55,740 nt of DNA, taken from Candidatus Thorarchaeota archaeon. GTDB lineage: Archaea; Asgardarchaeota; Thorarchaeia; Thorarchaeales; Thorarchaeaceae. This document shows positions 6,287-39,679 of the stretch, piece after piece. The notes beneath the pieces were generated by a model, which did no database searches, had not been told where the DNA came from, and worked only from the letters and a program-made list of their open reading frames with translations. Position 1 is the stretch's first letter, and every line of letters starts with the position of its first letter. Position numbers and translations under genes: made by a program. The DNA is taken from assembly GCA_019894665.1 (NCBI GenBank), contig JAGXOC010000006.1, forward strand, positions 1-55,740, read 5' to 3'.

Positions 6287-8559
6287 TGGCTATGCACGGT
6301 AGACGAGGCCCAACTGCAATGGCTGGTCAGAGACCGAAACGAAGTCGCCCAATCAGAGTCTTACTTGGTAGGATGGTACATTACCTAGGACGATTCAAAC
6401 GTATAGTCGCTATAGGTGCTGTTCTATCTCTTGGTGCAACAATTGTTGCGCTCTTTGACCCCCTGGTGCTAAAATTCGCGATCGATGAAATTCTGGTGAT
6501 AAATCCATTAATTGCAACCGTATTCTTCTTGACCACACTCTATGTGATCTTTAAGGTGACCTCTTGGATACTTAGTAGCATCAACATATGGATTCTAGCA
6601 GGTGCCCAAGCAGGATTTGTTCAGAACATCCAAGAAGATCTCTACATTAAACTACTGGGAGCTGACCTATCCTATCACAAGGGAGAACAGAGTGGAAATG
6701 TAACATCACGAGTAACATCCGATACTGTTGAACTGGGAACCGGAGTTCAAGTGATAATCGACTTCTCAAGTCAAGTGTTAATGTTGGTGTCAACTTTTCT
6801 CCTGCTACTGTGGATTGGTCCCTCCATCGCGTTGACAATACTCGTGATTCTGCCGGGCGTGGCTTTTATAGCAATCCTCTTTGGAACTGTTGGTCAAAGG
6901 ATCATGCTTGCTTCACGAAGAGCATCAGGTGCTGTTTCAGGACAAATAGCTGAAAACCTTAGTGGCATTCATGTTGCCAAGGCGTTCAACCGAGAAAAAG
7001 AACTTGCAGAAGATATGATGGAGTTGAATCAGAAATCTTACCATCATGGCTTTAGATTTATGATTTTGATGAGCGCAATGCAACCACTTGTACGCACAAT
7101 TGGTCAGCTTGCACTTGCGACAATGCTCTTCGTTGCAGGTGGTCTAGCTGTTGGTACCCTGCCCGTACTCACTATTAGTGATTTATTCCTTGGAATTATT
7201 CTGATCAATAGGTTTCTGTGGCCATTGCTGTCACTCACTATGATGTCCACTCAAGTTCAGTCCTCAATGGCTGCAATGGACCGTGTTATGGATGTTCTTG
7301 AATCTAAACCCGCTATTGCAGATGCTGATGACGCAATGCCCCTTGAGGATGAGAGTGATGGTATCCACTTCCAAGATGTGACGTTCGAATATGTGGAAGA
7401 CACACCTGTATTGAACGGTGTGAACTTTTCAATTGAACCGGGTGAAATGGTTGCTATTGTTGGCCACACCGGCGCTGGCAAGACGACTATCGCTGCGTTG
7501 GTCAATCGGTTTTACGACCCCAAAGAGGGTGGAATATTCATAGGCAGACAGGACATTCGACAAGTCACTCAGCAATCATTACACGATTCGATGTCTTTGA
7601 TACCTCAGGAACCCTATCTCTTTGATGACAGTATCTTTGAGAACATTCGTTATGGTCGTCCTGAAGCAACTGACGAAGAGATCTATGAAATCTGTAAGAT
7701 AATCGGTGCGAATGAGTTCATTGAAGTTCTTGCTGATGGATACGATACGAAGAGTATTGAAAGTGGTAAGAACCTGAGTGCAGGTCAACGTCAGATGATA
7801 ACGATTGCACGAACAATGCTAGCTGATCCGAAGATTCTCATCTTGGATGAAGCAACAAGCAGGTTAGACGCCTACAGTGAGTCGTTGGTTCAGGATGCAC
7901 AAGAACGGTTGTTCTCGAACAGGACCACTATCGTCATCGCGCATCGACTGACAACCATTGCAAATGCTTCCCGGGTCTTTGTGTTTGACCATGGAAACCT
8001 AGTAGAGAACGGTACACATGAGGAACTACTTGCTTTGAATGGTGTATTCAAGTCACTCTACGACACCTACTACGCACACCAAGGAATCGATGAGATCACA
8101 GAAGAGGTTGCAGAGGTAGCCAAGTCTGAGGTCGAAAAACATGGTGGAGAACCTCCAGCCCCCTCTGGTTCAGGAATGATGATGGGAATGGGTGGAGGCA
8201 TGGGCGCAGGAATGGGTCATGGTGGAATGGGCGGCGGCATGGGTGGAATGAGACCTTCTCCTGAGATGATTGAGAAGATGAAGGAACAGTACAAATCTGA
8301 TCCTGATTCAATTCCGCCACCAATGCGTGAGATGTTTGAGAAAATGATTGAGGCAGAAGAAATGACTGATGAAAAGAAAGAAGAAGTAGGAAAACGAGAA
8401 ATGAGTGGTCATGGTGGACCAATTGGATCGGGAAGACCTACTCCCGAGATGATTGAGAAGATGAAAGAGCAGTACAAGACTGATCCAGACTCATTGCCGC
8501 CTAATGCCCGTGAAATGATTGCAAGAAGAATCGCAGAAGATGAAAAGTCTGAAGACTGA
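6286..8559 (+). CDS. ABC exporter, fused permease/ATPase subunit 2, with ~160-aa C-terminal Gly-Met-rich repeat tail
   Basis: Start overlaps the upstream stop (TAATG). The NBD has Walker A GHTGAGKTT, signature LSAGQRQ and Walker B ILILDEATSRLD. After ..LYDTYYAHQG comes a non-ABC tail (see finding). Confidence 0.85.
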   Translation: MAMHGRRGPTAMAGQRPKRSRPIRVLLGRMVHYLGRFKRIVAIGAVLSLGATIVALFDPLVLKFAIDEILVINPLIATVFFLTTLYVIFKVTSWILSSINIWILAGAQAGFVQNIQEDLYIKLLGADLSYHKGEQSGNVTSRVTSDTVELGTGVQVIIDFSSQVLMLVSTFLLLLWIGPSIALTILVILPGVAFIAILFGTVGQRIMLASRRASGAVSGQIAENLSGIHVAKAFNREKELAEDMMELNQKSYHHGFRFMILMSAMQPLVRTIGQLALATMLFVAGGLAVGTLPVLTISDLFLGIILINRFLWPLLSLTMMSTQVQSSMAAMDRVMDVLESKPAIADADDAMPLEDESDGIHFQDVTFEYVEDTPVLNGVNFSIEPGEMVAIVGHTGAGKTTIAALVNRFYDPKEGGIFIGRQDIRQVTQQSLHDSMSLIPQEPYLFDDSIFENIRYGRPEATDEEIYEICKIIGANEFIEVLADGYDTKSIESGKNLSAGQRQMITIARTMLADPKILILDEATSRLDAYSESLVQDAQERLFSNRTTIVIAHRLTTIANASRVFVFDHGNLVENGTHEELLALNGVFKSLYDTYYAHQGIDEITEEVAEVAKSEVEKHGGEPPAPSGSGMMMGMGGGMGAGMGHGGMGGGMGGMRPSPEMIEKMKEQYKSDPDSIPPPMREMFEKMIEAEEMTDEKKEEVGKREMSGHGGPIGSGRPTPEMIEKMKEQYKTDPDSLPPNAREMIARRIAEDEKSED

Positions 8560-11485: not shown

Positions 11486-11562
11486 GGGCCGATAGATCAG
11501 CCTGGCAGATCGTCTGGTTTGCATCCAGAAGGTCGCGAGTTCAAATCTCGCTCGGTCCACCA
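11486..11562 (+). tRNA. tRNA-Ala (anticodon UGC), genomically encoded CCA
   Basis: Hand-folded cloverleaf. Acceptor GGGCCGA/TCGGTCC contains the G3:U70 Ala identity pair. D arm is GATC..GATC. Anticodon stem TCTGG/CCAGA has loop TT-TGC-AT. T arm GCGAG/CTCGC has loop TTCAAAT. Discriminator A is followed by CCA. Confidence 0.9.
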
Positions 11563-17182: not shown

Positions 17183-17557
17183 TCAAGATGGTCCATTATT
17201 GGTTAGTATGAAGTAGCCTGCTAGCACATACTTGGATGCTAACATTACAATCTGTTTTTCATCGTCAGTCAGAGAGATTAATTCTATACCAAGACGTTCC
17301 ATCTCCCCTACAAGCTCTTCTTCATCCATCTCCTCTACGTGCTTTCTGGTATCACTTTCCAGTCTTTGCATATCCTCTCTTTGCAGCTTCACTGCTCTAT
17401 CAGTGCCAGCAATAAGATACAACATTGCAGGGCCTACCCCTATTCGTAATAATCCCTTGACCATCCGGGGTCTCTTTCTTCTCGGACCGCTTCGTGGACT
17501 TCTTTCTGATCCTCTCATGCCTATTTCATTGACCTCTGTTATCCATATAGGTTTCAA
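17183..17557 (-). CDS. Hypothetical protein
   Basis: 124-aa ORF with mixed composition (basic N-terminal part, acidic helical middle). It looks more protein-like than the Ser-rich overlapping + strand ORF 17232..17579. Confidence 0.35.
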   Translation of the reverse strand: MKPIWITEVNEIGMRGSERSPRSGPRRKRPRMVKGLLRIGVGPAMLYLIAGTDRAVKLQREDMQRLESDTRKHVEEMDEEELVGEMERLGIELISLTDDEKQIVMLASKYVLAGYFILTNNGPS

Positions 17558-17593
17558 TGTTTCTACTTTTACAAGTTAGACAGAATAAGATAG

Positions 17594-17633
17594 GAGGGTC
17601 CAGAGGTAAAAAGGGAAAGTAGGCGGTTGACCA
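17594..17633 (+). repeat. Structured-repeat family, copy A (5'-half only)
   Basis: AATAAGATAGG (17594-17604) and CCAGAGGTAAAAAGGGAAAGTAGG (17610-17633) are identical to 18978-18988 and 18996-19019. Confidence 0.6.
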
Positions 17634-17697
17634 TTGTGTTCATCTTCACTCAAGATGATTCAATAGAAATATACGCTCTGAAGTTCTTTGATTCATT

Positions 17698-18987
17698 GTG
17701 AACGGGAGAGGAGTATTCGCGATATTGGTTCTAATATCACTGTGTTCTCCATTCCTTTTGATGTCCGGATCAAGCATCCCAAATTCAGATACCGGGCTGT
17801 TTGTATCTACAAAATTCCCTTCCTTCTTGGCAAGTGAATACAATTCATCTATCGAAGTTCTGTCTGATGCTGATTTCGTCTCTCAAGAATGGCCAGGTAG
17901 TGGAACTGAGAGTTCTCCCTATCTGATTTCTAATTTGCGATTCAGTTATCCGGATCAAGAACCAATCATTATCGCGAACACACGTGCACATTTTGTTGTA
18001 CGTAATTGTGTTTTTGAGAAACAAGGAATGCCACCGCTTTACGGCAGTGTAAACGCAATTTCAATTTTCAATGCTTCAAATGGCATCATCAGAGACTGCA
18101 CAATCAGTACTACTGGTGTAGCAATTGGAGTTTCAAACTCTAGTGAAATGATGATTTTGAATAATCAGGTCAGAGATACTGAGCAAGGTTTCAACCTTGA
18201 ATCTTTGGAAAGGAGTGTCATATGCAATAACTCACTTAATTCAGGATATGTTGGATTTCATACGGATGGATTGATTAGCTGCAATATCACTAGAAACACG
18301 ATTGTAGAAACAGAGTGGGGAATCGTTCTTGGTGAGTTTTGTGTCAACAATTCCATCTCACTGAATCGTATTGGGTGGTGTGAAGAATATGCTCATGATT
18401 ATGGGTCGGGGAATATGTGGGACTCAAACAGCTGGAGCAATTGGAATGGAGTCGGACCCTACATCATCTCTGGTACAGCTGGCAGTATAGATGAATCACC
18501 CTCATTATTCGACGAAGACGTTCTTGGACCTAAAATCGAGTTTGATCATCCACCAGGGCTTTTAGACTCAAATGGGGTATTTACGTTCAGTATCATTGTT
18601 ACTGATGTGTCTGGCGTCGATTCGGTTGTGATATACATTCGAGAGACCTGGTGGGTTGGTGATGAAACTGTGCGGAGCAACTGGTCTGACTTCGCCATGC
18701 AACCGAGTGAAATTCAGAATAATTACACCTTCTCTTTCCAAACAAATGACTGTTGGAGCTTAAGTTTCATCGTCTTAGCGAACGATACACTTGGTCATTC
18801 GAGAATGAGCGATATGGATTCATTCGTAGTAAATCCACATTTTCCAACCTTTCCACCGCCTCCACCCAATTTCCAGCTCTTTATAGCTCTTGGAATTCTC
18901 TTTGTTCTCATTGTGACTGTTGTCATTAATAATCGATCTCAGAGTACTCCCTCATCTGGAATCTTGCACTCGATTAGAATAAGATAG
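17698..18987 (+). CDS. Secreted, membrane-anchored right-handed parallel beta-helix (PbH1/NosD-like) repeat protein
   Basis: N-terminal signal-like hydrophobic segment. Repeated ~22-aa units resemble PbH1 (..NCVFE.., ..IRDCTIS.., ..ILNNQVRD.., ..ICNNSLN.., ..CNITRNTIV.., ..NNSISLNRI). Pro-rich linker PPPPPN is followed by a C-terminal TM helix. Confidence 0.7.
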   Translation: MNGRGVFAILVLISLCSPFLLMSGSSIPNSDTGLFVSTKFPSFLASEYNSSIEVLSDADFVSQEWPGSGTESSPYLISNLRFSYPDQEPIIIANTRAHFVVRNCVFEKQGMPPLYGSVNAISIFNASNGIIRDCTISTTGVAIGVSNSSEMMILNNQVRDTEQGFNLESLERSVICNNSLNSGYVGFHTDGLISCNITRNTIVETEWGIVLGEFCVNNSISLNRIGWCEEYAHDYGSGNMWDSNSWSNWNGVGPYIISGTAGSIDESPSLFDEDVLGPKIEFDHPPGLLDSNGVFTFSIIVTDVSGVDSVVIYIRETWWVGDETVRSNWSDFAMQPSEIQNNYTFSFQTNDCWSLSFIVLANDTLGHSRMSDMDSFVVNPHFPTFPPPPPNFQLFIALGILFVLIVTVVINNRSQSTPSSGILHSIRIR

Positions 18988-19090
18988 GGTCAGGCCCAGA
19001 GGTAAAAAGGGAAAGTAGGTGTTTATTCCTACTTTGTAGGTATTCGCGTGGTTAGGAGGGGAGTTTGAAGCCCTCTGTGCCTGACCCTAA
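18978..19090 (+). repeat. Structured-repeat family, copy B (complete palindromic element)
   Basis: Terminal inverted repeat TAGGGTCAGGC (18985-18995) / GCCTGACCCTA (19079-19089), extended by CAGAGG/CCTCTG. Inner hairpin AAAGTAGG-tgtttatt-CCTACTTT. Conserved core TCGCGTGGTTAGGAGGGGAGTTTGAAG (19044-19070). The element begins at the stop codon of the beta-helix gene. Confidence 0.6.
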
Positions 19091-19244
19091 GAGAAAATCA
19101 TTCCATAGTATATTAAGGATTACTTTAGAGGAAATTAGAAAAATTAAGTGTGTGTCAGCTCACTTTAATCATTTTTAAACCCGAAAACACTTTTCAGCAT
19201 GCAATCCTAACCACATGATCATTGGGACCGAGGTGAGTTGAAAT

Positions 19245-20075
19245 TTGACACTTAATCGACGTGGCATAATCTTTCTTGTCATCCTACTTGTCATTGAAGC
19301 TTACGTAATCATGACTCAATGGGTTCAACCTCTAAGCTGGGGTATCGTTCCAATTACTGGGTTGAATGGAGCCATCACTTACATTTTCTTGTGGTTATTA
19401 TGGCCAATTTTCGGTGGAATAATCTTCGTTCTTGTGATGCCTCGGATATTGGGTCCACTCTTTCTCAGGATGAAGGGTGCAGTATGGAGCGACTACGTGA
19501 ACGCTTACGTAGACTTACCTCGCCCAACTCTAAAACTAACTCGAGTTATTCGAAGAGCTATCTATCTCGGTCTGTTGACAATGGGCATAGTGTCCATCTT
19601 GATCTACATCATTCCACCTACACTCCTTCTTCCCCCGGGAGCAGTTCAACCACCTATCACAGTTTTTCACATGGCCTCTATTGCAAGCATTGCGGGTCTT
19701 GTGGTTCCAATATCAATCGCATTGTGGTCATCAGGCTGGTCGTATCGGGATGCTTCACTTGTTCACTATAAGATTCCTGATGATGGGGTTGATGAACTCT
19801 ATGAGATTGAACCAATCCATCTTAGGTTCGACTCTTTCCTGAAGGGATATGCAGGGTTCTCATCTATACTATTCATCATCAATCTCGTGATAGTTCAATT
19901 CACAACCGAGGACTTCACAATGGCTCTTCTGGTTCTGTATGTATTCATGCACGTATCACTATTGACCCTGCCAGCTATATACGTTCACTCACGAATGAAT
20001 CACATGTGGCTCAGAAAGAATCTACCAAAGGCGCGTAGATTCACCAAATCTGATGTCCAAATTCTTGAAGATTGA
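19245..20075 (+). CDS. Hypothetical polytopic membrane protein
   Basis: 276-aa ORF (TTG start 7 nt after the SD GAGGTGA) with ~7 hydrophobic helices. No family recognised. Confidence 0.55.
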   Translation: MTLNRRGIIFLVILLVIEAYVIMTQWVQPLSWGIVPITGLNGAITYIFLWLLWPIFGGIIFVLVMPRILGPLFLRMKGAVWSDYVNAYVDLPRPTLKLTRVIRRAIYLGLLTMGIVSILIYIIPPTLLLPPGAVQPPITVFHMASIASIAGLVVPISIALWSSGWSYRDASLVHYKIPDDGVDELYEIEPIHLRFDSFLKGYAGFSSILFIINLVIVQFTTEDFTMALLVLYVFMHVSLLTLPAIYVHSRMNHMWLRKNLPKARRFTKSDVQILED

Positions 20076-20080
20076 ACAAC

Positions 20081-20200
20081 AATAAGAAGATAGGATCCGA
20101 TTCGGTGTATGTGTATCGTGCCAGTCGTTAGAGCTTGCACGATGTATCGCGTGGTAGGAGGGAGATTGAAGATTTATAGAAATCTACGAATCGAATCCTA
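20081..20200 (+). repeat. Structured-repeat family, copy C (complete palindromic element)
   Basis: Leader AATAAGAAGA, then terminal inverted repeat TAGGATCCGATTCG (20091-20104) / CGAATCGAATCCTA (20187-20200), 13 of 14 positions complementary. Inner hairpin ATCGTGC..GCACGAT. Core TCGCGTGGTAGGAGGGAGATTGAAG (20146-20171) matches copy B. Confidence 0.6.
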
Positions 20201-20305
20201 AACTGACCGGAAATCAACCTCATTTAAACTTAATTCATTCGGAATTATTAACCAATTAACTATTGTGTGAATTCAAATTCGAACTAGACCTCAACCTTTG
20301 TCTTG

Positions 20306-20344
20306 AAAAAATAGTGTCCACTAATGCGAGGGGTATGCCCCTTG
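20306..20344 (-). terminator. Stem-loop plus T6 downstream of the Zn-ribbon/wHTH gene
   Basis: On the minus strand, CAAGGGG-cata-CCCCTCG (20327-20344) lies just after the stop at 20349, followed by TTTTTT (complement of 20306-20311). Confidence 0.35.
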
Positions 20345-20348
20345 AGAG

Positions 20349-20720
20349 CTAGTAACCCCATTCCTGCCCTTGTCTTTGACGATACCATCTCTGTCCTTTC
20401 TTAGTGAGAGAGTATTGTCCTTGGATCTCTGATAGAAGCCCCATTTCCACCATGTTGCGAAGCACGCCGAACAGTTTGTCATCTGAGGCTCCTGTGACCT
20501 CTTGGAGTCCGGGGAAGTTCATCTTCCCATTTCTTTTCAGATGCTGAGCAATGTCGTACTTGCCAACTGATCTAGTTTCAGTTCGCACTATGATGTGGCC
20601 GCAGTTTGTGCAGAGGAGGTCTCCTTTGTTATCATCGCGGGCGACTTCCTTACTACCACAGATCGGGCAGGTCGTCTTTGAGAATCTTAGTGAACGTCGA
20701 TGTGACATAATTCCGACCAA
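20349..20720 (-). CDS. Small TFIIB-type zinc-ribbon plus winged-helix protein
   Basis: CPICGSKEVARDDNKGDLLCTNCGHII matches the TFIIB zinc-ribbon pattern. The C-terminal ..LRNMVEMGLLSEIQGQYSLTKKG.. looks like a wHTH. Confidence 0.65.
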   Translation of the reverse strand: MVGIMSHRRSLRFSKTTCPICGSKEVARDDNKGDLLCTNCGHIIVRTETRSVGKYDIAQHLKRNGKMNFPGLQEVTGASDDKLFGVLRNMVEMGLLSEIQGQYSLTKKGQRWYRQRQGQEWGY

Positions 20721-20771
20721 GTTGACCTCTTACGTTGCCTTGATAAAACTAACGAACGGACCGTGGTTTGA

Positions 20772-21290
20772 CTACTGCTTCTCTGAAACGAGGTCTCTGA
20801 AGAATGCCTCATAGTCTATCTCAAAGGGTACTCGAAGACCTAACCGCACTTTCTTTCCTGCTTGGTCAATCTCAATATATCCCTGTTTCTGCAACTCCCT
20901 CAAATCATCCATTACTCCCCTCAGGCTCTTCTTACGAAACTCCCGCACTCGGTCATAAGAGACCCAACCGCCTTCCTGATAGGCCAATGTGATGACTATG
21001 AGCAAGGTCGCAGCTAACCGATCCGGGAGCGCCGATTCTTCCTGGCTGATCTTTGACTGTATGGAAGTGTCGACGTAGAATACTCCACTCACCGGATTGT
21101 GTTTGATGGTGAGGCCAACTGGTTCCAATCGAGTATGCAATTCACCCAGGCGTCTGAACAGGATTTCTCTACCCAAATCCTCTGGGAGGCCAAGAGCATC
21201 AAGCATATCTTCTACTCCTGCACCGATGGGGTCTCCTGACCTAGTTAGGAGTTTCATAAGGATGGCATACTCGTTCATTGTGTCCAACAC
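20772..21290 (-). CDS. ScpB-like tandem winged-helix (kite) protein
   Basis: 172 aa. ILMKLLTRSGDPIGAGVEDMLDALGL...LGELHTRLEPVGLTIKHNPVSGVFYVDT and LPDRLAATLLIVITLAYQEGGWVSYDRVREFR..GVMDDLRELQKQGYIE follow the two-WH ScpB pattern (EALLF..gePl...; LS.aaLEtLAIIAY.qP.tr.ei..iRG). Confidence 0.55.
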   Translation of the reverse strand: MLDTMNEYAILMKLLTRSGDPIGAGVEDMLDALGLPEDLGREILFRRLGELHTRLEPVGLTIKHNPVSGVFYVDTSIQSKISQEESALPDRLAATLLIVITLAYQEGGWVSYDRVREFRKKSLRGVMDDLRELQKQGYIEIDQAGKKVRLGLRVPFEIDYEAFFRDLVSEKQ

Positions 21291-21310
21291 CCATGCAAAC
21301 CTGTCTGTTG

Positions 21311-21318
21311 TTTAAAAT
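21311..21318 (-). promoter_or_regulatory. TATA box for the ScpB-like gene (near-leaderless)
   Basis: The minus strand reads ATTTTAAA, centred ~24 nt upstream of the ATG at 21290. Confidence 0.35.
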
Positions 21319-21416
21319 CTGAGGGTCTCGTTTTTTCAATCAAGCAAAGGGCGCCACGTTGTTAAGTATAGTAACAATATGTGACTTCATTCTGTGACCC
21401 TCACAAGTGGCTTCGC

Positions 21417-21424
21417 TATATATA
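21417..21424 (+). promoter_or_regulatory. TATA box for the micro-ORF/MFS transcription unit
   Basis: TATATATA is centred ~36 nt upstream of the ATG at 21457, which implies a ~10-nt leader. Confidence 0.45.
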
Positions 21425-21456
21425 CCAAAACTGACGAGTATTCCTTGTGAAATATC

Positions 21457-21561
21457 ATGGCTCTAACAACTAACTCTCGCAAATCATCCGAGTTGAAGAA
21501 TAAGAAGTCCGTCTTTAGCACTGACGCTATCTCCTACGCATACGTCACTGTTGTAAGGTGA
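21457..21561 (+). CDS. Micro-ORF 1 (34 aa), paralog family
   Basis: Hand translation: MALTTNSRKSSELKNKKSVFSTDAISYAYVTVVR*. It shares N-terminal T(T/N)NSR and C-terminal (T/A)(D/E)A(I/L/V)..(A/T)Y..(V)RR with micro-ORFs 2 and 3. It is below the 60-aa track cutoff. Confidence 0.4.
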   Translation: MALTTNSRKSSELKNKKSVFSTDAISYAYVTVVR

Positions 21562-21576
21562 AGTGTTTGAACAATC

Positions 21577-21667
21577 TTCTGAGACATCTGAACTGGCTTT
21601 TGGTTGATCCAGTCGTGGCCCAGCGTGGTCATCCGATGGTCACAGATGTGGTCAGTTCGTCTCAGAA
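21577..21667 (+). other. Long interrupted hairpin carrying four phased GTGGYC(A) repeats
   Basis: TTCTGAGAC (21577-21585) pairs with GTCTCAGAA (21659-21667), and GAACTG (21590-21595) pairs with CAGTTC (21653-21658). The interior holds GTGGCC (21615), GTGGTC (21625), ATGGTCA (21636) and GTGGTCA (21648), spaced 10-12 nt apart. Confidence 0.45.
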
Positions 21668-21710
21668 ACAGCATATCCTGTGACCAGCCTATAGGAACGT
21701 GTGAAAGATA

Positions 21711-21821
21711 ATGAAATCAACTAACAATTCCCGATTGTTTCGTCTTGTCGACGAGACTCGATTCACTCACGTACAATCTGCTGAAGCACTGGCTTATGCA
21801 TACGCTACAGTAAGAAGGTGA
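21711..21821 (+). CDS. Micro-ORF 2 (36 aa), paralog family
   Basis: Hand translation: MKSTNNSRLFRLVDETRFTHVQSAEALAYAYATVRR*. Its stop lies in AAGGTGAAG, which serves as the SD for micro-ORF 3, 4 nt downstream. Confidence 0.4.
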   Translation: MKSTNNSRLFRLVDETRFTHVQSAEALAYAYATVRR

Positions 21822-21825
21822 AGAA

Positions 21826-21924
21826 ATGGCACTCGCAAAGATACAAGGAATTCCTCGTGTTTGGCAGAAGACTAAGACTGTCGTAACCACTGACGCAGTG
21901 GCTAGGACCTACTTTAGGAGATAA
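21826..21924 (+). CDS. Micro-ORF 3 (32 aa), paralog family
   Basis: Hand translation: MALAKIQGIPRVWQKTKTVVTTDAVARTYFRR*. It ends 5 nt before the MFS ATG, and its last codons contain the MFS SD (AGGAG). Confidence 0.4.
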   Translation: MALAKIQGIPRVWQKTKTVVTTDAVARTYFRR

Positions 21925-21929
21925 TTCAG

Positions 21930-23270
21930 ATGACTGAAGTTGTTAACATTGAAGAAACAGAGACGCAGGATGATCCAAAGGGATTCAGAGTAGTACTTGC
22001 TCATCGTGATTTCTCATTACTATGGTCTGGTCAATTAGTCTCTAACATTGGTACAGCAATCGCTTCACTAGCACTCATGTTCTATGCGTATGCCCTGACT
22101 GGGTCTGCTATGGCAATGGCAGTTTTAGCTATAGCTCAGACACTTCCAGTTGTCGCTTTTGCTGGTCCAATCGGTGTTTACATCGATCGATGGAACCGAA
22201 AGAAGATCATGGTCGCTTCTGATGTTGTCCGCGCAGTCGCGATTCTCCTCATTCCTCTGACAATATACTTCCCCTCTTTCATGCCCACAATCTATTGGGT
22301 TTACTTGATCACATTTCTCTACGCTACTGCTAATGCGTGGTTCTTTCCCGCAAGGAGTGCATCAATCCCCAATCTCGTCGAAGGCGATGAGTTGGTCGCA
22401 GCCAACTCTCTATCTCAGATGACATTTCAGGTTGTTCAGTTAGTAGTCCCCCCACTTGGTGGGATCCTTGTTGCATTCCTTGCACCTAATTACTTCCTAG
22501 CATTCGCTATCAACTCTGCAGCTTTCGTGTTCTCCGCATTTGCACTTCGAGGAATCACAACGAATCTCATCCCTAACCGTGTTTCTGATGACAAGGAGTC
22601 GCTGATGGCTCAGATGAAGCAGGGTGCTCGATATGTGATTGGTAATTCGATTCTCTCATTCCTCTTCGTATTTGCAATGCTCCTCGCGGGCTCATCAGGC
22701 ATCCTGAATGCACTGATTATGCCATACCTTGGAGGTGAGCTCGGTCTAGGTTCCGCTCAACTCGGTCTTGTCTTAAGCGCAGGTGCGGCCTCAGGAGCTT
22801 TAGCCGCAGTGTACTTTAGTCGCAAGAAGGAGCTTGAGAAACCTCTCTATCTCGTCACAACAGCTGGGCTCCTCGCAGGCGTTGCTATCTTTGCACTTGT
22901 CCTTGCATTTGACTTGGTGACTGTTATGTTGTCATGGGCAATGATTGGTGCAGTGGATGTCATTCTTAACATTCCACTTACTGTCCTTATGCAGGAACTT
23001 GTTGAAGATGAGCTGCGCGGTCGTGTCTTTGCACTTCTCAGTGTGGCATTCACAGCAGTGCAAGTTGTTGGAATGGGCATAGGTGGCGTCTGGGCTGAGG
23101 CTGTTGGATCAACAGGTCCTCCAATGATTGGTGCTGCCCTTGCGCTTGCAATCGTTTCATTAATTGGTTTCCTAGTAGTTGCTAAGCTGAACCTTCACGC
23201 AGGTCTTTCAAAACCAAGTGATGAAGTACCAGAAAACGAAGAGGAACTTCTAGTTGAGGTACCTGCTTGA
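21930..23270 (+). CDS. MFS transporter (EntS/DUF894-like efflux type)
   Basis: 446 aa with ~12 TM segments. N-terminal FRVVLAHRDFSLLWSGQLVSNIGTAIASLALMFYAY and the ..DRWNRKKIM.. loop are typical of this MFS subgroup. Confidence 0.85.
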   Translation: MTEVVNIEETETQDDPKGFRVVLAHRDFSLLWSGQLVSNIGTAIASLALMFYAYALTGSAMAMAVLAIAQTLPVVAFAGPIGVYIDRWNRKKIMVASDVVRAVAILLIPLTIYFPSFMPTIYWVYLITFLYATANAWFFPARSASIPNLVEGDELVAANSLSQMTFQVVQLVVPPLGGILVAFLAPNYFLAFAINSAAFVFSAFALRGITTNLIPNRVSDDKESLMAQMKQGARYVIGNSILSFLFVFAMLLAGSSGILNALIMPYLGGELGLGSAQLGLVLSAGAASGALAAVYFSRKKELEKPLYLVTTAGLLAGVAIFALVLAFDLVTVMLSWAMIGAVDVILNIPLTVLMQELVEDELRGRVFALLSVAFTAVQVVGMGIGGVWAEAVGSTGPPMIGAALALAIVSLIGFLVVAKLNLHAGLSKPSDEVPENEEELLVEVPA

Positions 23271-23288
23271 TCCATCAAGCAGACCTCC

Positions 23289-23300
23289 TTTCTTTTTCTT
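23289..23300 (+). terminator. T-rich tract after the MFS gene
   Basis: TTTCTTTTTCTT starts 19 nt after the MFS stop, consistent with archaeal oligo-T termination. It overlaps the convergent ScpA-like 3' end. Confidence 0.3.
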
Positions 23301-23967
23301 AAGTTGTGTCAACATCTGACACTGAGGGTCTCCAGATCTCTCGTGTTTCAGGATTATAGTGTAACTGCCCCTTGGAGACCAAGATTACTACATAGAGGAA
23401 GTGTTTGAGAAACAAATCAAACTCTTCATTCATCACAAGATCATCGAACTTGATTTTCTTGTCCTCTGAAATTGTTGCTAGGAATCGTTCCAAATCCTCA
23501 AGAAAGACAGAATCTTCAGTATCGAAAGCAAATCCATTTGGTAGTGTCGTGATCTTGGGAATTGGATCTTCAGGGGGCTCTCTTGACATTGCCTCAATCA
23601 GCGTCAGAATTCGATTGAGTGCATCTCCAAGTGAATCTTGCTCTAGATGTCCTATGACAACTGGTTGTTTCATAGTCACCAACTTTGCGAGATTCCTCAT
23701 GGACAGCTCCTTAAGTCGGCTCACATAGATTTCGGGGGCTGCGAGTATTCGGGCAAGTTCTTGAACGCGATTGACCTTTGTACTCAGAATCTCATTCAAC
23801 ATCTCATCAATGTCAATCCGGCTGTCAATCTTGGCAGCCAATTCTTGAAGGTCTTTGTATGCTTGAGTCAATCGGAGTTCAAGTGGATCAATCTCACCTG
23901 TACGAACAGCTTGCACCATGTTGAAGACACTCTCGGCAAGACTTTCGTTTTCACTCACGACTATCAC
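23299..23967 (-). CDS. Kleisin (ScpA-like) subunit
   Basis: GTG start 3 nt after the SMC stop. N-terminal ..GEIDPLELRLTQAYKDLQEL.. and C-terminal winged-helix-like ..FLKHFLYVVILVSKGQLHYNPETREIW follow the ScpA N- and C-terminal patterns. Confidence 0.6.
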   Translation of the reverse strand: MIVVSENESLAESVFNMVQAVRTGEIDPLELRLTQAYKDLQELAAKIDSRIDIDEMLNEILSTKVNRVQELARILAAPEIYVSRLKELSMRNLAKLVTMKQPVVIGHLEQDSLGDALNRILTLIEAMSREPPEDPIPKITTLPNGFAFDTEDSVFLEDLERFLATISEDKKIKFDDLVMNEEFDLFLKHFLYVVILVSKGQLHYNPETREIWRPSVSDVDTT

Positions 23968-23970
23968 TCT

Positions 23971-26900
23971 CTACTGAGTCTTGAACTTGGGGCTCTCGAT
24001 TATTAGCGAGGGTTCAACACTATTTGGTGAAACGACACCCAATATTTTGTCAGCATGTTTAAGCAAGTGTGTACTTTTGGCTGGAGTGAGCAGAATGAAC
24101 TGGCTACGCCGGGACGCATCATGAAACAGGCGACTAACAAGTTCTGTGTTTGTTGCGTCTAGAAATGTATCAACTTCATCCATAACGTACACCGGTGCAG
24201 GATTGAACCTCTGCAATGCAAGTATCAGGCTAATTGCAATTAGGGACCTTTCTCCACCAGATCCCGCGCTGATATCACCAAAGCCCTCCGTTTTGATTCT
24301 TGATTTGAATTCCACTCCATATTTTCCATCTCTGAGAGCAAGCTCGAATCTGACACTGCCTGGGAATTGTACTCGCCCCAAAACCTCGTTCACACCCTTC
24401 TCCACCTTTCGAAGAGTTTCATTCATTCCGTTGTGATATTGCTCTCTGATGTTCTGTACTGCAGACTCTGCTTCATCCAGTTCCTCGCCTAGCTCAGCCA
24501 CACGTTTAACAAGTTCTCTTAGCCTGCCCTTCAATTGGGTCTCTGTATGAGCCACAGTTTCCGAAACATCCTGATAGTCATCTAGGATATGTCTAAGTTT
24601 TACGAGTTCGCTCCTAACAAGGTCGATACCTCTGATGTTATCAGGTCTGCTTTTTCCTTCAATTTCCTGTTCAACTAATTCAAGATCATACTCTAGGTTT
24701 GTCAGTTGCCTTTTTGATTGCAAGACCTCAACCCTACGGGTTTTCACAAGTAGATTCAGTTCAATCAGTCGCTCACTCAATGTGCGTGATGTCTTCCTAA
24801 TCTCTGCAAGTTCCTCTCTGATCTTTGTTTGTCCTTTCTTTGTTTCCTCTCTTCCAGTACGCATGACCTCTATCTTATCAAGAATTGAGGATGCTGCATT
24901 CTTTGACTCTTTGATATCCTTACGCAAGTCAGTGAGGCTATCAGATTGCATTGTGATACTCTCTCTGATTCTCTTCAGTTCCTGACGTTTGAGATCTTCA
25001 TCCCTCTCAGAGGCATGTGCTTTGTTGTCGACCTTCGTCAGGTCACTCTGAAGACGTCGGTACTTTGTTCGGATTGCAGACTCCTGTCCTACCAATCTGC
25101 TTCGTTCAGGAGGTTGTGTGCTGTCTAGTTTTCTGAGGTCTCTCTCAGACTTACCATAGTCCCGTTGAAGATCTTTCAGCTCATCATCAATAGATACTAT
25201 TCGTTCTCCAAGCTCTGGTATGCTCTCGTTGAGTTTCCGTCGACGTTCCCATGTTGCCCCCCAACGGGTCATCTGACTGATCAGGTCCATGGTTTCTTCT
25301 CGTTCATTCGAGAGTGTTTCCAATCTAGTCATGATATCTGTAACGCGTTTACGTTCTACTGTGAGATCCTTCTCGATTTTTGCCAAACGAGTCTGAAGTG
25401 GAGCCGTAGAGACCATTCCCGATGGCTCACTCTTTGGATGACTGACAATCCGCGCGTCATCAGGAATTGTCACAGAACCATCCCTAGTGACCGTTCGTAT
25501 ATTCTGTTTCGTAGCAAGTCGTGACGCTGTTTGAGAGTTCTTCACTAGAACGAAATCGCCGAATACTCTGCGTAAGAGGGATTGTGCCTCCGTATCTGCT
25601 GAGAGCCGATTCCAGAGCCAATCCTCGACACCAGCCCCTTGAGGTAACTCAGGTCTCTCTTGTACGCTCTCCTCTTTCAAGAGAATTATCGGGGACGGAG
25701 CCTCCTCTTTGTTTCGTAGCTTGAGTAGTAATTGATAATCAGAAGAATCCGTTGTGACAAATCCCAGTGGGAGGTTTCCTGAGAGGACTCCTTCCACAGC
25801 AGCCGCGATTTCATCATCAGCTGTGAATAAACTGATGAGTGGTCCATACACTGTTTCCAAATTGTGCCCTGAAATTGCTTCACTGAGATTTCTGACTGAT
25901 TCAGGTATGCGTTTTGAGGTTTCAGATAGTCTAATCTTGATGTCGTCAATCTCTTTCTGGAGTTGAGAAACCAAACTCGTTTTTCTGAATCGTTCCTCAT
26001 TGAGAGACGCAATTTCTCGCTCTAGTTGAGACTTCTTTCCTGCAAGTTCTTTCTCATCTGTCTTTTCGATCTTATCCCATACGTGGGACCATTTGCTCTC
26101 CATTGCTTGGAGCTCAGCTTCTTCTATCTGGAGTCTTTCACGTAGACTTCTCATAAGTAGGTCCTTGCCCTCTAACTCAGCCTGGAGTGCTTTGTAGAGC
26201 CCATGTGCTTCTGCTCTCTTCGTGTTCCATTCAGCAAAGGCTGCGAGCTCATCCCCTATTCGTGCTCGTTCATCTTCCAATTCGCTGAGTTCTTCACGTA
26301 GTATCTTCTGTTGGTCCATGTATTGTTCTCGTGCCGCGGACACACGTTCTAAATCCTCACTGAGCTTCTCCTCTGTTCGTTTCTCAGCCCTTACGTTGTT
26401 CTCAAGCTGACGAAGTTCTACTACATGCTTCTTAGAATCCCCTTCAAGCCTAGCAATGTTTCGTTCTTCTTCCTCAATCTTTGCATCTATTCTACCCAGT
26501 TCTGTCTGGAGCCCTGAAAGTTTGGTTTCAAGTTCTGTGCTTTCTTCTTCTTGTTCCGAAATATGGCCTTCAATCTCCCTCTGCTCTTCTATCACACCTA
26601 CAAGACCTGATTCCTTTGTTTCAATCTCATCCTTTACCTGCTGAATTCTGGTTGAAAGGTCATCGAAACTAGCCCACTTCAATTCCTGCCCCAAATCTCT
26701 TTCCTGATCTTGTAGGGCTCTCTTCTTCTCAAGCCTAGAGAGATCATGTTGCAGCAACTCAAGTTCTCGCTCTACTATCTTAGACTCCGTTAGAGCTGCA
26801 TCGAGTTTCTGACGACTCTGAAAAACTTCAGTCTCTTGTAATCTAATTCTATCCCGAAGTACATCAAGTCCCGTTCCCTCTTCTACGAGTCGTCTGACCT

Positions 26901-27339
26901 CAAAGGGATCCATTTCTCGTATTGCATTGATTCTTTCCTGAGGCATGAAAACCAAAGGATTGTCACTATCAAGTCCGAGAGCCCCAATCATCTGCTTATG
27001 CTCAACCGCCTTGATTCGTCGTCCATCTGCATAAGCTCTAGGGATACCATCTCTATCAATACGTCTCAGAAACTTTCTACTTTGCCCATTCACCTTTACG
27101 GTGATCTCAACCTCCGCCGTGCTTGCGCCGTGTCGGATGAAATCGCTCCACTTACTATATCGGTTCTCTCTTTGATTCGAACCAAGTGCGAATTTCAAAG
27201 CGTGGAAGATGGATGTCTTTCCTGAACCATTTGGTCCAGCGAGTACTGTGAGACCTTTATCGAACTCAGCTGTTCCTGCGTAAAAGGACAGAAAATTTCC
27301 CAATCTTACTGATTCAATATTTACCTTGGTTTCACTCAT
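23971..27339 (-). CDS. SMC-family ATPase, divergent (SMC5/6-like hallmark residues)
   Basis: 1122 aa. Walker A GPNGSGKTS, long Glu/Lys/Leu-rich coiled coils, a central hinge (..VYGPLISLFTADDEIAAAVEGVLSGNLPLGFVTTDSSDYQLL..), signature SGGERSL, Walker B VYVMDEVDTFLD and C-terminal SQFILLTP. Confidence 0.85.
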   Translation of the reverse strand: MSETKVNIESVRLGNFLSFYAGTAEFDKGLTVLAGPNGSGKTSIFHALKFALGSNQRENRYSKWSDFIRHGASTAEVEITVKVNGQSRKFLRRIDRDGIPRAYADGRRIKAVEHKQMIGALGLDSDNPLVFMPQERINAIREMDPFEVRRLVEEGTGLDVLRDRIRLQETEVFQSRQKLDAALTESKIVERELELLQHDLSRLEKKRALQDQERDLGQELKWASFDDLSTRIQQVKDEIETKESGLVGVIEEQREIEGHISEQEEESTELETKLSGLQTELGRIDAKIEEEERNIARLEGDSKKHVVELRQLENNVRAEKRTEEKLSEDLERVSAAREQYMDQQKILREELSELEDERARIGDELAAFAEWNTKRAEAHGLYKALQAELEGKDLLMRSLRERLQIEEAELQAMESKWSHVWDKIEKTDEKELAGKKSQLEREIASLNEERFRKTSLVSQLQKEIDDIKIRLSETSKRIPESVRNLSEAISGHNLETVYGPLISLFTADDEIAAAVEGVLSGNLPLGFVTTDSSDYQLLLKLRNKEEAPSPIILLKEESVQERPELPQGAGVEDWLWNRLSADTEAQSLLRRVFGDFVLVKNSQTASRLATKQNIRTVTRDGSVTIPDDARIVSHPKSEPSGMVSTAPLQTRLAKIEKDLTVERKRVTDIMTRLETLSNEREETMDLISQMTRWGATWERRRKLNESIPELGERIVSIDDELKDLQRDYGKSERDLRKLDSTQPPERSRLVGQESAIRTKYRRLQSDLTKVDNKAHASERDEDLKRQELKRIRESITMQSDSLTDLRKDIKESKNAASSILDKIEVMRTGREETKKGQTKIREELAEIRKTSRTLSERLIELNLLVKTRRVEVLQSKRQLTNLEYDLELVEQEIEGKSRPDNIRGIDLVRSELVKLRHILDDYQDVSETVAHTETQLKGRLRELVKRVAELGEELDEAESAVQNIREQYHNGMNETLRKVEKGVNEVLGRVQFPGSVRFELALRDGKYGVEFKSRIKTEGFGDISAGSGGERSLIAISLILALQRFNPAPVYVMDEVDTFLDATNTELVSRLFHDASRRSQFILLTPAKSTHLLKHADKILGVVSPNSVEPSLIIESPKFKTQ

Positions 27340-38938: not shown

Positions 38939-39679
38939 GTGGCAAAAGTGAAACTACTAGCAGTTGCAGATGTTCATAGCCCAAGGTATCTTGAAGAGTT
39001 TGTGAAAGATCTTGGTCAACATGAGCGCCCAGATGCGTTCCTGTTTGCAGGGGATATGATAAATCGCGGCAATGCAGAGGAGTACAAAAACGTACTAGAC
39101 ACAATTGAGAAGATATTAGGCACCTCTTTCCCAGTCATTGGTTGTTTTGGAAATGAAGAGTACAGTGAGGTTCGCAAGGACATCGTTTCCATTGTAGGAG
39201 ATCGAATGATTCTCCTAGATGAGAAATCATACGTTTTGGAATCCAATGGTCTGACAGTTGGGATCGTTGGAACACAGGGGTCTCTGGACAAGGCGACGAG
39301 CTGGCAACGCAGAAATATCCCAAGTGTGAAAGGAGTGTTTGAGAGAAGAGCGAAGAGAGCTGCGTCACTCTTGAAGAAGATGAAGGACAAAGTGGACCAT
39401 CGGATTCTCTTGATGCACTATAGTCCCTGCCTTGAAACCTGCGAGGGTGAGGAAACTAAGGCGTTCTCATGGATGGGGAGCAGAAAATTCTACAGTGTGG
39501 TTGTTGAACATCAACCAGATCTTGTGATTCATGGACATGTTCACAACTCAACTAGACATGAAGTGACAATAGGGGCTTCTTTTATCAGGAACGTTTCATT
39601 TCCCGCTGTAGGATCCATCACGGAATTGAACGTCTGGGATACAAAAAAGACCCGAAGGATTGAGTATGAGTCCTGTTAA
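38939..39679 (+). CDS. Calcineurin-like metallophosphoesterase, paralog 1
   Basis: Motifs LLAVADVHSP, FLFAGDMINRG, GCFGNEEY, LLMHYSP and IHGHVHN. GTG start. Confidence 0.75.
   Translation: MAKVKLLAVADVHSPRYLEEFVKDLGQHERPDAFLFAGDMINRGNAEEYKNVLDTIEKILGTSFPVIGCFGNEEYSEVRKDIVSIVGDRMILLDEKSYVLESNGLTVGIVGTQGSLDKATSWQRRNIPSVKGVFERRAKRAASLLKKMKDKVDHRILLMHYSPCLETCEGEETKAFSWMGSRKFYSVVVEHQPDLVIHGHVHNSTRHEVTIGASFIRNVSFPAVGSITELNVWDTKKTRRIEYESC

Follow-up and report, generated by a model that had tools for sequence, protein, structure and literature searches.

Elements B and C, in the 55,740-nt stretch of Candidatus Thorarchaeota DNA analysed here (the window), are two paralogous minus-strand genes for a small structured RNA of ~110-125 nt, a member of a previously undescribed family (Table 1). 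The family has no Rfam counterpart and is well supported by covariation, by its promoter, by synteny across the class and by a copy borne on an apparent mobile element. A fuller account, in which the minus-strand RNA would display an invariant core and act in trans, and the 3' end of the B gene would serve as an insertion site, is in our view probable on balance. Among known archaea, the Asgard archaea stand nearest to eukaryotes and, to our knowledge, their non-coding RNAs are almost uncharted.

Table 1. Coordinates of the B and C genes, their promoters, copy A and neighbouring features in the window
Feature	Position	Strand	Basis or remark
C-type small RNA gene	20075..20201	-	sequence; covariance model R1, 125 bits
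C, P1 5' strand	20199→20186	-	
C, P3 hairpin	20184→20171	-	
C, conserved core CUUCAAUCUCCCUCCUACCACGCGAU	20171→20146	-	
C, variable P2 hairpin	20143→20115	-	
C, ACACAUACAC linker	between P2 hairpin and P1 3' strand	-	
C, P1 3' strand	20105→20091	-	
C, pyrimidine-rich tail UCUUCUUAUUGUUGUU	20090→20075	-	
C, TATA box TTTAAAT	20222..20228	-	ends 22-23 nt before first P1 base
C, distal A/T-rich box TTAATTGGTTAATAATT (TTAATTTT in relatives)	20244..20259	-	~20-25 nt upstream of TATA box
Hairpin AGGGGCAUACCCCU + T6 run	20306..20342	-	sequence
B-type small RNA gene	18976..19091	-	sequence; nhmmer 102 bits
B, P1 5' strand UAGGGUCAGGCACAGAGG	19089→19072	-	
B, core GCUUCAAACUCCCCUCCUAACCACGCGAAUA	19071→19041	-	
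B, P2 hairpin CCUAC-AAA-GUAGG	19040→19028	-	
B, conserved strand CCUACUUUCCCUUUUUA	within 19027→19003	-	
B, P1 3' strand	19002→18985	-	
B, tail UCUUAUUCU	18984→18976	-	
B, TATA box CCTTAATATA (RNA sense)	19109..19118	-	19-20 nt before P1
B, distal A/T box CTTAATTTTTCT	19137..19148	-	upstream of promoter; upstream alignment
Copy A, CCUACUUUCCCUUUUUACCUCUGG-ACCCUCC-UAUCUUAUUCU	17582..17623	-	3'-terminal ~42 nt of B-type gene
Inserted segment, 1.39 kb	17624..18975	+	between direct repeats; without counterpart here in L002 and others
NosD-like parallel beta-helix gene of insert	17698-18987	+	Pfam NosD 1.8e-11
Small protein gene, 111-124 aa	17183..17557 (start 17518 or 17557)	-	
Membrane-protein gene	19245..20075	+	between C 3' end and B promoter

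The sequence-only reading had described A, B and C as three related palindromic elements; all three exist, with every listed sequence feature present and with shared motifs far beyond chance. The 24-mer common to A and B (CCAGAGGTAAAAAGGGAAAGTAGG) has exactly two occurrences, 17600-17623 and 18996-19019, and the core TCGCGTGGT(T)AGGAGGG likewise two, at 19044 and 20147, none being expected by chance in either case; the opening motif AATAAGA(N0-4)TAGG occurs at 17584, 18978 and 20081, against an expectation of 0.09. B and C have the terminal inverted repeats attributed to them, and both fold closed. B is also detected by the C-built covariance model R1 (41.6 bits, E = 3.6e-9), and the second conserved strand, CCUACUUUCCCU, is present in it. 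With E <= 10 as the cut-off, the window scan against Rfam 15 still gave no match to A, B or C, and Rfam and tRNA searches gave none for the family in seven other loci or in the divergent L057 and L058 copies; the sole tRNA in the window (Rfam, ARAGORN) is a tRNA-Ala at 11486.

The 5' and 3' ends of the RNA would form a long closing helix that holds a large loop or junction open, with a near-invariant, unpaired C/U-rich core displayed in the loop and with variable hairpins as optional decorations. Across 30 distinct C-type homologues, 96% of cells in the consensus helices are paired, compared with 19-56% when the partners are slid; compensatory changes occur in 13 of the 23 pairs, and 0 of 500 shuffles match the C-type values on any covariation measure. 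The proposal of a small non-coding RNA family under structural selection is supported, with the qualification that the RNA strand is the minus and not the plus strand. In B, P1 covaries, and the P2 stem takes the form of at least eight unrelated sequences among relatives. The internal hairpin originally assigned to B, AAAGTAGG/CCTACTTT, is an alternative fold possible in some genomes only; what the relatives conserve is CCUAC/GUAGG, adjoining the core. Optional hairpins interrupt the core at three different points in variants, and where an extra internal hairpin is present CUCCC is paired by G-runs. No significant fold was obtained for the A region (z = +0.84), and the partner CTACTTT proposed for it sits at 17563-17569, not at 17573-17579.

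The RNA strand is assigned to the minus strand because of the G·U and A·C counts, the position of the promoter and the U-rich tails. Single-sequence minimum free energies do not tell the two strands apart. The RNAalifold consensus energies are -24.8 (minus) versus -9.1 (plus) for C and -23.1 versus -15.7 for B, and consensus pairs of the 30 distinct C-type sequences, read in the minus sense, comprise 565 Watson-Crick, 62 G·U and 10 A·C. Upstream of C, an alignment of 30 distinct copies is gap-free, with a spacer of variable sequence and a TATA position, at constant distance, occupied by TTTATTAA, TTTAATAAA or TTTAAAT; the B TATA box is invariant and in register in 27 of 27 distinct B copies, again with a variable spacer and no gaps. 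Taking both genes together, the box ends 19-23 nt ahead of P1 in every one of these copies. The distal A/T boxes of both genes keep their positions in the respective upstream alignments. The tails are pyrimidine/U-rich and contain T5-T7 in some genomes, e.g. T6 in L021, and the tRNA-Ala gene of the window has a similar layout and trailer. Both kinds of feature by which archaeal small-RNA genes are recognised, i.e. a fixed TATA/BRE position (expected at ~-25 to -30) together with a termination signal, and a structure with compensatory changes, are found in B and C, which would be transcribed from these promoters.

Immediately upstream of the C TATA box is a purine-rich, BRE-like stretch. Between the C promoter and the Zn-ribbon/wHTH gene (20349-20720) stands a hairpin followed by a T6 run, which by its sequence is likely to be the terminator of that gene; in distant loci this region is still conserved down to ~20304.

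The leading suggestion had been that B and C belong to the plus strand, as 3'-UTR, terminator or stability elements for the beta-helix and membrane-protein genes, B beginning at the stop codon of the former and C 6 nt past that of the latter in the window; the plus strands of B and C do also give hairpin-closed folds. However, plus-strand helices would have 62 A·C mismatches versus 10 G·U, the plus-strand RNAalifold consensus is far worse, there is no U tract after B or C on that strand, and the constant spacing of the TATA box fits minus-strand transcription only. Moreover, in five loci (L015, L022, L017, L023 and L021) B and C are adjacent, with no plus-strand gene before them. We regard this explanation as very improbable; the annotation is corrected in that the '3'-UTR palindromes' are opposite-strand genes.

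A scan for the core pattern in 185,579 species genomes (596 Gb) matched 24 DNA stretches, all but three titled Thorarchaeota, with at most two copies per genome; of the remaining three, one is titled Promethearchaeota (L024) and two are MAGs of an 'uncultured archaeon'. Each of the Thorarchaeota loci fetched has the pair in a single syntenic place, between a WD40 gene and the Zn-ribbon/wHTH gene; the latter is constantly linked to B/C and is part of an SMC-ScpA/ScpB-like operon. Divergent lineages have a single B-like copy in the same place, the simplest version (L057) being an 18-bp stem around a 57-nt loop with all of the conserved sequence, and a mobile-element-like contig (L031) carries a minimal copy, comprising stem and core without the 3' part, in surroundings that include wHTH and MCM-like genes. 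Neither nhmmer nor the covariance model found further copies in the window or in ~370 kb of related loci. The spacer between C and B is empty (~200 nt) in the five loci named above and otherwise holds variable cargo, with unrelated genes in L009, L001 and L011; no C fragments border it.

These results bear on the possibility that the elements are a MITE-like family of mobile palindromes, which would be consistent with their terminal inverted repeats, their positions at gene boundaries and the presence of three copies within 2.6 kb of the window. It is, however, barely credible, in that the 596-Gb scan found copies in Thorarchaeota-type MAGs only, never more than two per genome, in a strictly syntenic position throughout the class and with no others in the window or the related loci. 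The inverted termini show the covariation and G·U bias of an RNA helix, and what lies outside the helix is the conserved tail on one side and the variable promoter spacer on the other, with no target-site duplication.

Almost every copy has the core, CUUCAA(A/U)CUCCC(C)UCCUA(A)CCACGCGA(A)U, without change. The core is unpaired in the consensus folds; it includes AUCUCC and CCUCCU, the latter being the anti-Shine-Dalgarno sequence of the 16S rRNA 3' end. The displayed core is presumably the working part of the RNA, and a trans-acting role is proposed because it contains CCUCCU; our best guess, made from the sequence, is that the RNA would present an anti-Shine-Dalgarno-like loop in trans. Its partners would then be either mRNAs, at their purine-rich, Shine-Dalgarno-like stretches, or the proteins by which the 16S 3' end is recognised. 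In these loci AGGAGA and GGAGAT are enriched 10-fold and 9.4-fold, respectively, upstream of start codons and are the top Shine-Dalgarno-like hexamers, a few unrelated low-count hexamers scoring higher. A search of the window gave no convincing complementary target of the core, the 26-30 invariant nucleotides of which exceed what Shine-Dalgarno pairing alone requires.

The invariance of the core sequence could alternatively reflect a double-stranded DNA site for a protein (wHTH/Zn-ribbon or SMC-associated), or a replication-origin box, and the constant linkage to the Zn-ribbon/wHTH gene of the SMC-ScpA/ScpB-like operon, the conserved A/T-rich boxes close by and the location of the L031 copy among wHTH and MCM-like genes would all fit such a role. 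The flanking helices with compensatory changes and G·U bias, the optional hairpins that the core takes at three points and the fixed promoter geometry argue against it, and we consider it highly unlikely.

The elements might also be cis-regulatory leaders, riboswitch-like or sequestering a Shine-Dalgarno sequence, of a downstream minus-strand gene. A gene for a protein of 111-124 aa follows B or its fragment in the same direction in many Thorarchaeota, the minimal L031 copy stops 12 nt before a strong Shine-Dalgarno sequence and ATG, and Shine-Dalgarno-like sequences are complementary to the core. This is nevertheless quite improbable: downstream of C lies either a convergent gene or B, and in no case a co-directional ORF; in deep-branching genomes B leads into the convergent WD40 gene; a terminator-like tail ends both RNAs; and in the window all that remains of B in front of the small gene is the 42-nt fragment, while a TATA-like box belonging to the small gene lies near its start codon.

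Copy A is a fragment of a B-type gene, without the 5' half, the core or the promoter. It matches the B end at 42 of 46 positions in a pairwise alignment, forming a direct repeat with 18976-19019, and with nhmmer corresponds to positions 60-107 of the B profile only; its flank matches that of the intact B in L002, where the arrangement is uninterrupted. It does not lie behind a plus-strand gene, the preceding plus-strand ORF (17232-17579) being a low-complexity artefact and the real gene there being the minus-strand gene for the 111-124-aa protein. Copy A would be the duplicated end of the B gene, left on the far side of the 1.39-kb insert. The beta-helix protein encoded by this insert begins with a signal peptide and is anchored in the membrane by its C terminus, and the stop codon of its gene lies within the antisense of the B tail.

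The arrangement recurs in that B 3' fragments are found 0.4-2.2 kb downstream of an intact B in six genomes (the window, L011, L008, L007/L032, L005 and L019), in each of which the direct repeat of the 3' end bounds an insert absent in relatives. All of the fragments end at the tail and start near the 3' half of P2, and each resembles the resident B of the same genome. The cargo varies by genome and, where ORFs were read (the window, L011 and L008), encodes a membrane-anchored surface protein; the inserted genes carry TATA-like boxes of their own, unlike the co-oriented, promoterless cassettes of integrons. The window, L005 and L008 all have beta-helix cargo; a single old event may therefore lie behind some of the six cases. 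The 3'-terminal ~45 nt of B thus looks like a chromosomal insertion site, as at the 3' ends of tRNA genes, and would be served by a putative recombinase. No recombinase domains were found in the 30 window ORFs scanned between 30 and 37855, Pfam finds a NosD-like domain alone in the window insert, and no recombinase-like ORF stood out on reading those of the L011 and L008 inserts. Presence/absence polymorphism was not seen among conspecific contigs, because all of them carry the insert.

We consider it unlikely that the main role of the elements is in DNA recombination, as attC-like sites for cassette capture, with a structure that serves recombination and not an RNA function. The part of that earlier proposal which stands is that direct repeats, copy A and the B 3' end, surround an inserted gene, and that such single-gene inserts recur in six genomes; the part which does not is that A is a third element rather than a gene fragment. 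Lineage-variable cargo beside both elements, and imperfect palindromes in which structure is kept as the stem sequence varies, are consistent with such sites. By contrast, the G·U/A·C asymmetry suggests selection on RNA of one strand (although attC sites also act as folded single strands), the invariant 26-30-nt core, fixed promoter and U-rich tail would be superfluous, the duplication covers only the 3' ~45 nt and not the whole element, R''/R' core motifs, an integrase, attI and an array are all missing, and the elements are conserved also where cargo is absent.

A more elaborate and unlikely possibility combines three roles: the class-specific RNA would mimic the 16S 3' end as a decoy or regulator for translation initiation or for factors of small-subunit maturation; a mobile element would encode a stripped-down mimic that interferes with the same process; and the 3' end of the gene would be a docking site for a cassette-style system, with its recombinase in trans, that shuffles surface-protein genes. 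The invariant loop resembles the mRNA-binding tail of the ribosome, and the B/C RNA offers a specific candidate through which an Asgard lineage may control translation by RNA. The locus is a marker for Thorarchaeota genomes, and the B 3' end a defined hotspot of surface-protein gene swapping, the repeat scars of which should be useful in the hunt for a recombinase.

Comparison with Y RNA/YrlA and 6S RNA, stem-closed 'display' RNAs that serve as decoys, is by analogy only. As in those RNAs, an end helix closes a large conserved loop and the gene has its own promoter; the B/C loop sequence, however, is unrelated, there is no Rfam hit at E <= 10, and no Ro/TROVE gene was seen near B or C.

Integrons have been reported in Archaea, and B and C resemble attC sites in being ~100-nt imperfect palindromes at gene boundaries in which structure is kept over stem sequence; the single-gene inserts with a repeat boundary similarly recall integron cassettes. 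By contrast with attC, they lack the R''/L''-L'/R' organisation, GTTRRRY cores, IntI, attI, Pc and an array, only the 3' part of B is repeated, and both have a promoter, terminator features and an invariant core. No AAC...GTT cores of the attC R'' (RYYYAAC) and R' (GTTRRRY) type are visible in either, the ends of which read TAGG...CCTA / AATAAGA.

Small RNAs whose loops are C-rich and anti-Shine-Dalgarno include sRNA41 of Methanosarcina mazei and, with UCCC motifs, the Firmicute RsaE/RoxS. The B/C RNA is likewise small, with helix-displayed, unpaired CUCCC and CCUCCU complementary to GGAGG-type sites. It differs in having no sequence or Rfam relationship to them, in its far longer invariant stretch (26-30 nt), of which CCACGCGA follows no Shine-Dalgarno logic, and in that a mobile-element-like contig also bears a minimal copy of the family.

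Genes for tRNA and tmRNA are attachment sites of integrative elements; SSV1, for example, integrates into a Sulfolobus tRNA-Arg gene through a ~44-bp att that matches the 3' part of this gene exactly. The B RNA does not belong to the tRNAs, ARAGORN and Rfam being negative for it, and, unlike elements at such sites, its inserts are tiny (0.4-2.2 kb) and without a recombinase, no free attP element having been seen. As at such sites, B is a gene of the small stable-RNA type that has a promoter to itself and ends in a short trailer, its 3'-terminal ~40-55 nt are repeated beyond the inserted DNA with the gene left intact, the repeats resemble the resident B gene, and the cargo varies from genome to genome.

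B and C constitute a conserved pair of structured small RNA genes with their own predicted promoters, each displaying an invariant sequence. Their functional strand is the minus strand, on which three independent lines of evidence (pairing, promoter and ends) agree. The sequence-only reading had described ~110-nt palindromic repeats on the plus strand, and a noncoding RNA family with structure under selection was among its proposals; compensatory pairing is confirmed, but the strand is minus rather than plus. All three elements, A, B and C, are present as it described (reading of 17400-20500), with the 24-mer common to A and B occurring exactly twice in 55.7 kb and the core TCGCGTGGT(T)AGGAGGG twice in the window (chance expectation none in both cases), and the lead motif AATAAGA(N0-4)TAGG three times in the window versus 0.09 expected. 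The AATAAGA(AGA)TAGG form of that motif, taken to be the start of each element, is real but, because the functional strand is minus, it is the reverse complement of the RNA 3' tail. A small plus strand ORF (AGGAGG then UUG; 41 codons in B, 11 in C) was also considered and rejected, because neither its length nor its frame is kept.

Consensus folding with RNAalifold gives -24.8 kcal/mol for C on the minus strand versus -9.1 on the plus, and -23.1 versus -15.7 kcal/mol for B, with helix-closed folds for both. When 30 distinct C-type sequences were aligned to R1, a covariance model built on C-type copies, 96% of helix cells were standard pairs, versus 19-56% with the partners slid, changes on both sides were seen in 13 of 23 pairs, and none of 500 shuffles reached any of the covariation measures. 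The consensus pairs of these sequences comprise 565 Watson-Crick, 62 G·U and 10 A·C pairs; read on the plus strand, the 62 G·U pairs thus become 62 mismatches. The closing helix (P1) of B is biased alike, with G·U or U·G variants at 7 of 15 pairs, and at least eight unrelated sequences serve as the stem of B's inner hairpin, P2. The discrimination between strands uses consensus pair counts only and not per-sequence minimum free energies, comparison of which is uninformative (RNA sense favoured in 13/27 and 14/30).

In the RNA sense, the 75-80 nt upstream of every distinct copy (27 of B, 30 of C) form gap-free alignments. An invariant box, CTTAATATA in B and TTTATTAA, TTTAATAAA or TTTAAAT in C, ends 19-23 nt ahead of the first base of the closing helix, with a spacer sequence that is free to vary. 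As read from sequence, box and fixed spacing have the geometry of a putative archaeal TATA/BRE promoter; the constant spacing has no explanation in the plus orientation. Ahead of the C promoter, the upstream Zn-ribbon gene ends in a hairpin plus T6. A conserved pyrimidine/U-rich tail, AUCUU(A/C)UUCU..., comes after each RNA; in some genomes this tail is a plain T5-T7 run, e.g. CCUAACAUUUUUUCA in L021. The tRNA-Ala gene of the window has a similar layout, with a TATA-like box ~29 nt upstream and a pyrimidine-rich trailer, UUCUCUUUCUAUACUUCU. A distal A/T-rich box (Table) is found at all B and C loci, even those without a divergent gene; separately, many Thorarchaeota genes look leaderless, a TATA-like box lying ~25-35 nt ahead of their start codon.

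Table. Coordinates of the RNA genes, related copies and other features
Feature	Location	Strand	Details
Copy A	window 17582-17623		truncated B-type gene end
Beta-helix surface-protein gene	window 17698-18987	+	
B RNA	window 18976-19091	-	5' to 3': longer P1 (~16 bp), core GCUUCAAACUCCCCUCCUAACCACGCGAAUA, hairpin P2, second invariant strand CCUACUUUCCCU, P1', tail
C RNA	window 20075-20201	-	5' to 3': P1 (12-13 bp), small hairpin P3, core CUUCAAUCUCCCUCCUACCACGCGAU, variable hairpin P2, linker, P1', tail
Distal A/T-rich box TTAATTTT	window 19137-19148 and 20244-20259	-	~20-25 nt upstream of TATA box
tRNA-Ala (UGC)	window 11486-11562	+	stand-alone, outside any rRNA operon
14-nt perfect complement to C-type core (GAGGGAGATTGAAG)	window 26568-26581	-	inside SMC ORF
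Divergent B-like RNAs	L056:2150-2308, L057:5708-5815, L058:~5505-5612		
Minimal stem-loop copy of RNA core	L031:6239-6327	+	contig Ga0180007_10005956
Adjacent paralogous genes	window 38939-39679 and 39660-40340	+	direct repeats, 72-79% identity, 727-nt period
68-nt direct repeat	window 8251-8318 and 8434-8501	+	85% identical, 183 nt apart; in C-terminal extension of ABC-transporter gene (6286-8559)

That R1, built on C, also detects B (E = 3.6e-9) shows the two RNAs to be homologous. One clade has ACACACACAC as the C linker and others have YUUGAUYU, and the core tolerates insertions at three points, i.e. after CAAUCUC (L030), after CUUCAA(A) (L010, L026, L037) and between CCUCC(UA) and ACCACGCGA (L004/L041, L025/L036, L021), the last forming a hairpin whose base pairs CUCCC with a G run. 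Further loci were retrieved by way of Zn-ribbon protein homologues; among them, divergent lineages carry only one RNA, B-like and in the same place immediately following the Zn-ribbon gene, which makes C a later duplicate. The covariance model missed the L058 copy. NCBI labels one of these divergent lineages as Lokiarchaeota. The core of the divergent copies is AUAUCUCCCC(C)UCCUA(A)CC(C)ACGCGAAUA, with CCUACUUUCUCU kept. The L057 RNA, which has no internal hairpins, carries all of the conserved sequence in a 57-nt loop closed by an 18-bp stem; the essential design is a long stem displaying an unpaired pyrimidine-rich sequence. Mimicry of a T-loop or tRNA 3' half (UUCAAAC...CCA) was rejected, the divergent copies having AUCAUAUC in place of UUCAAAC. 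In the C-type copy at L007:5043-5140 (identical in L032), ~21 nt are missing, taking away most of P3 together with the C-rich half of the core. Decay of the copy or an error of assembly may account for this; the same genome has an intact B.

The core pattern, scanned against 185,579 prokaryotic species represented by a single genome each, returned 24 DNA stretches, all but three titled Thorarchaeota (the others being one Promethearchaeota record, L024, and two 'uncultured archaeon' MAGs), with one B-type and/or one C-type copy per genome. BLAST of the window against the loci shows a strictly syntenic gene order of WD40 gene, B, C, Zn-ribbon/wHTH gene and 172-aa neighbour. In L058:1-5381, counterparts of the 172-aa and 123-aa (Zn-ribbon/wHTH) proteins end a co-directional AAA-SMC-214 aa-170 aa-126 aa block, an arrangement which suggests an SMC/ScpA/ScpB-like operon; in the window (20349-27339, minus strand) the block contiguous in L058 is interrupted by an MFS transporter gene (21930-23270, plus strand). 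The genes earlier seen as bracketed by the elements prove to be lineage-specific additions, since B and C are adjacent with an empty gap of ~200 nt in five lineages (L015, L022, L017, L023, L021). In the window this C-B spacer (19092-20080) holds a 276-aa membrane protein, and elsewhere unrelated genes (L009:6045-7415, L001:305-1841, L011:2317-3172).

A mobile MITE-like palindrome, as was also proposed, is excluded, since neither nhmmer profiles nor the covariance model detected additional copies, whether in the window or in ~370 kb of related DNA; the copies present are syntenic, with at most one B and one C per genome. No known Rfam family matches A, B or C; searches of the window, seven short loci and two divergent copies gave only noise at gathering and permissive thresholds, and ARAGORN made no tRNA-like call at any of the three elements. 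Known Rfam families, tRNA, MITE, integron attC and intrinsic terminators each fail on a defining feature. Searches of the literature for Asgard/Thorarchaeota noncoding RNAs gave no description of the B/C RNA, and we regard it as a new family within a broadly familiar type of RNA.

Copy A is a derivative of B. By nhmmer it aligns to B profile positions 60-107 only, corresponding to the last ~42 nt of a B-type gene (conserved strand, P1 3' half and tail), and it has no core, 5' half, promoter or significant fold (z = +0.84 for the region). The CTACTTT reported upstream of A exists, at 17563-17569 rather than 17573-17579. The plus strand ORF 17232-17579, which stops just short of A, would encode low-complexity sequence; the minus strand ORF overlapping it is a real gene, being protein-like, conserved in relatives and called in public assemblies. 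A and the B end (18976-19019) are direct repeats 1394 nt apart, and the sequence beyond A (gtctaactt...) lies directly 3' of intact B in the insert-free L002 (Thorarchaeota AB_25); the beta-helix gene thus sits in an insertion at the B 3' end, with the gene end duplicated. Like arrangements, with inserts of 0.4-2.2 kb, occur in L011 (repeat identity 51/53), L008, L007/L032, L005 and L019. Every B fragment ends at the tail, starts within ~10 nt of the P2 3' half and resembles its own resident B. The cargo varies: L011 has an unrelated 407-aa repeat protein with a C-terminal anchor, and L008 has a membrane protein alongside a beta-helix homologue.

Inserts flanked by B fragments bear the apparent signature of site-specific integration at the 3' end of a stable RNA gene, a process familiar from tRNA genes. 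The proposal of recombination sites delimiting gene cassettes is partly borne out, in that A and the B end are direct repeats flanking an insert, in a pattern that recurs elsewhere, but A is a fragment only. Neither the inserts nor those parts of the window that were annotated contain a recombinase. Comparison of strains revealed no presence/absence polymorphism, the five conspecific contigs being 99.8-100% identical and alike in layout wherever they extend to the insert; a single old event may explain the cargo common to the window, L005 and L008. The C-B spacer differs from the inserts 3' of B in having no flanking repeat or C fragments.

A metagenome scan with the core gave more Thorarchaeota pairs and one different context, contig L031; matches in L027, L029 and L043 were rejected as GC-rich chance hits without stems, and viral contigs (IMG/VR) gave no match to the core pattern. 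The L031 copy (R1 score 26.8 bits, E = 8e-5) consists of a loop containing CUUCAAACUCCCUCCUAACCACGCGAAUA closed by 16 bp of stem, whose G·U pairs have the same sense; it sits between small ORFs of wHTH and Zn-ribbon type, and 12 nt separate its end from the Shine-Dalgarno (SD) sequence and ATG that begin an 87-aa ORF. Just upstream, a second CUUCAAAC is able to pair with the SD of that ORF. Along with many small wHTH/Zn-ribbon ORFs, L031 has genes for a UvsW-type helicase, a DNA methyltransferase, an MCM-like AAA ATPase and a subtilase; cellular housekeeping genes are absent, and the contig's proteins show no homology to the window's neighbouring genes. L031 looks like a mobile element or virus. 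That it carries the stem and core alone argues that the core itself is the functional unit. The unusual traits of the family are its class-wide invariance, its tandem paralogy, this minimal copy on a mobile-element-like contig and the use of a 3' end as an insertion hotspot for surface-protein genes.

The RNA probably acts in trans through its displayed sequence. CCUCCU(A) is the universal anti-SD end of 16S rRNA, and the core contains both CCUCCU(A) and AUCUCC; upstream of ATG starts across the Thorarchaeota loci overall (356 kb), AGGAGA and GGAGAT are the most enriched SD-like hexamers, above GAGGTG in count and enrichment. These matches favour an anti-SD-like decoy or regulator, a role which we hold tentatively, as a substantial but minority possibility; such an RNA would bind purine-rich ribosome-binding regions, or proteins recognising the 16S 3' end. 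However, the 26-30 invariant nt, including CCACGCGA, are more than SD pairing requires, and a search of the window for complementary targets gave no target, the isolated 14-mer complement (Table) probably being due to chance. The main alternative, within the same overall picture, is that the RNA is a protein-binding scaffold.

Among known systems, tRNA and tmRNA genes are the closest functional analogues of the B gene as an insertion target, and C-rich anti-SD small RNAs such as M. mazei sRNA41 or RsaE are the closest analogues of the loop chemistry.
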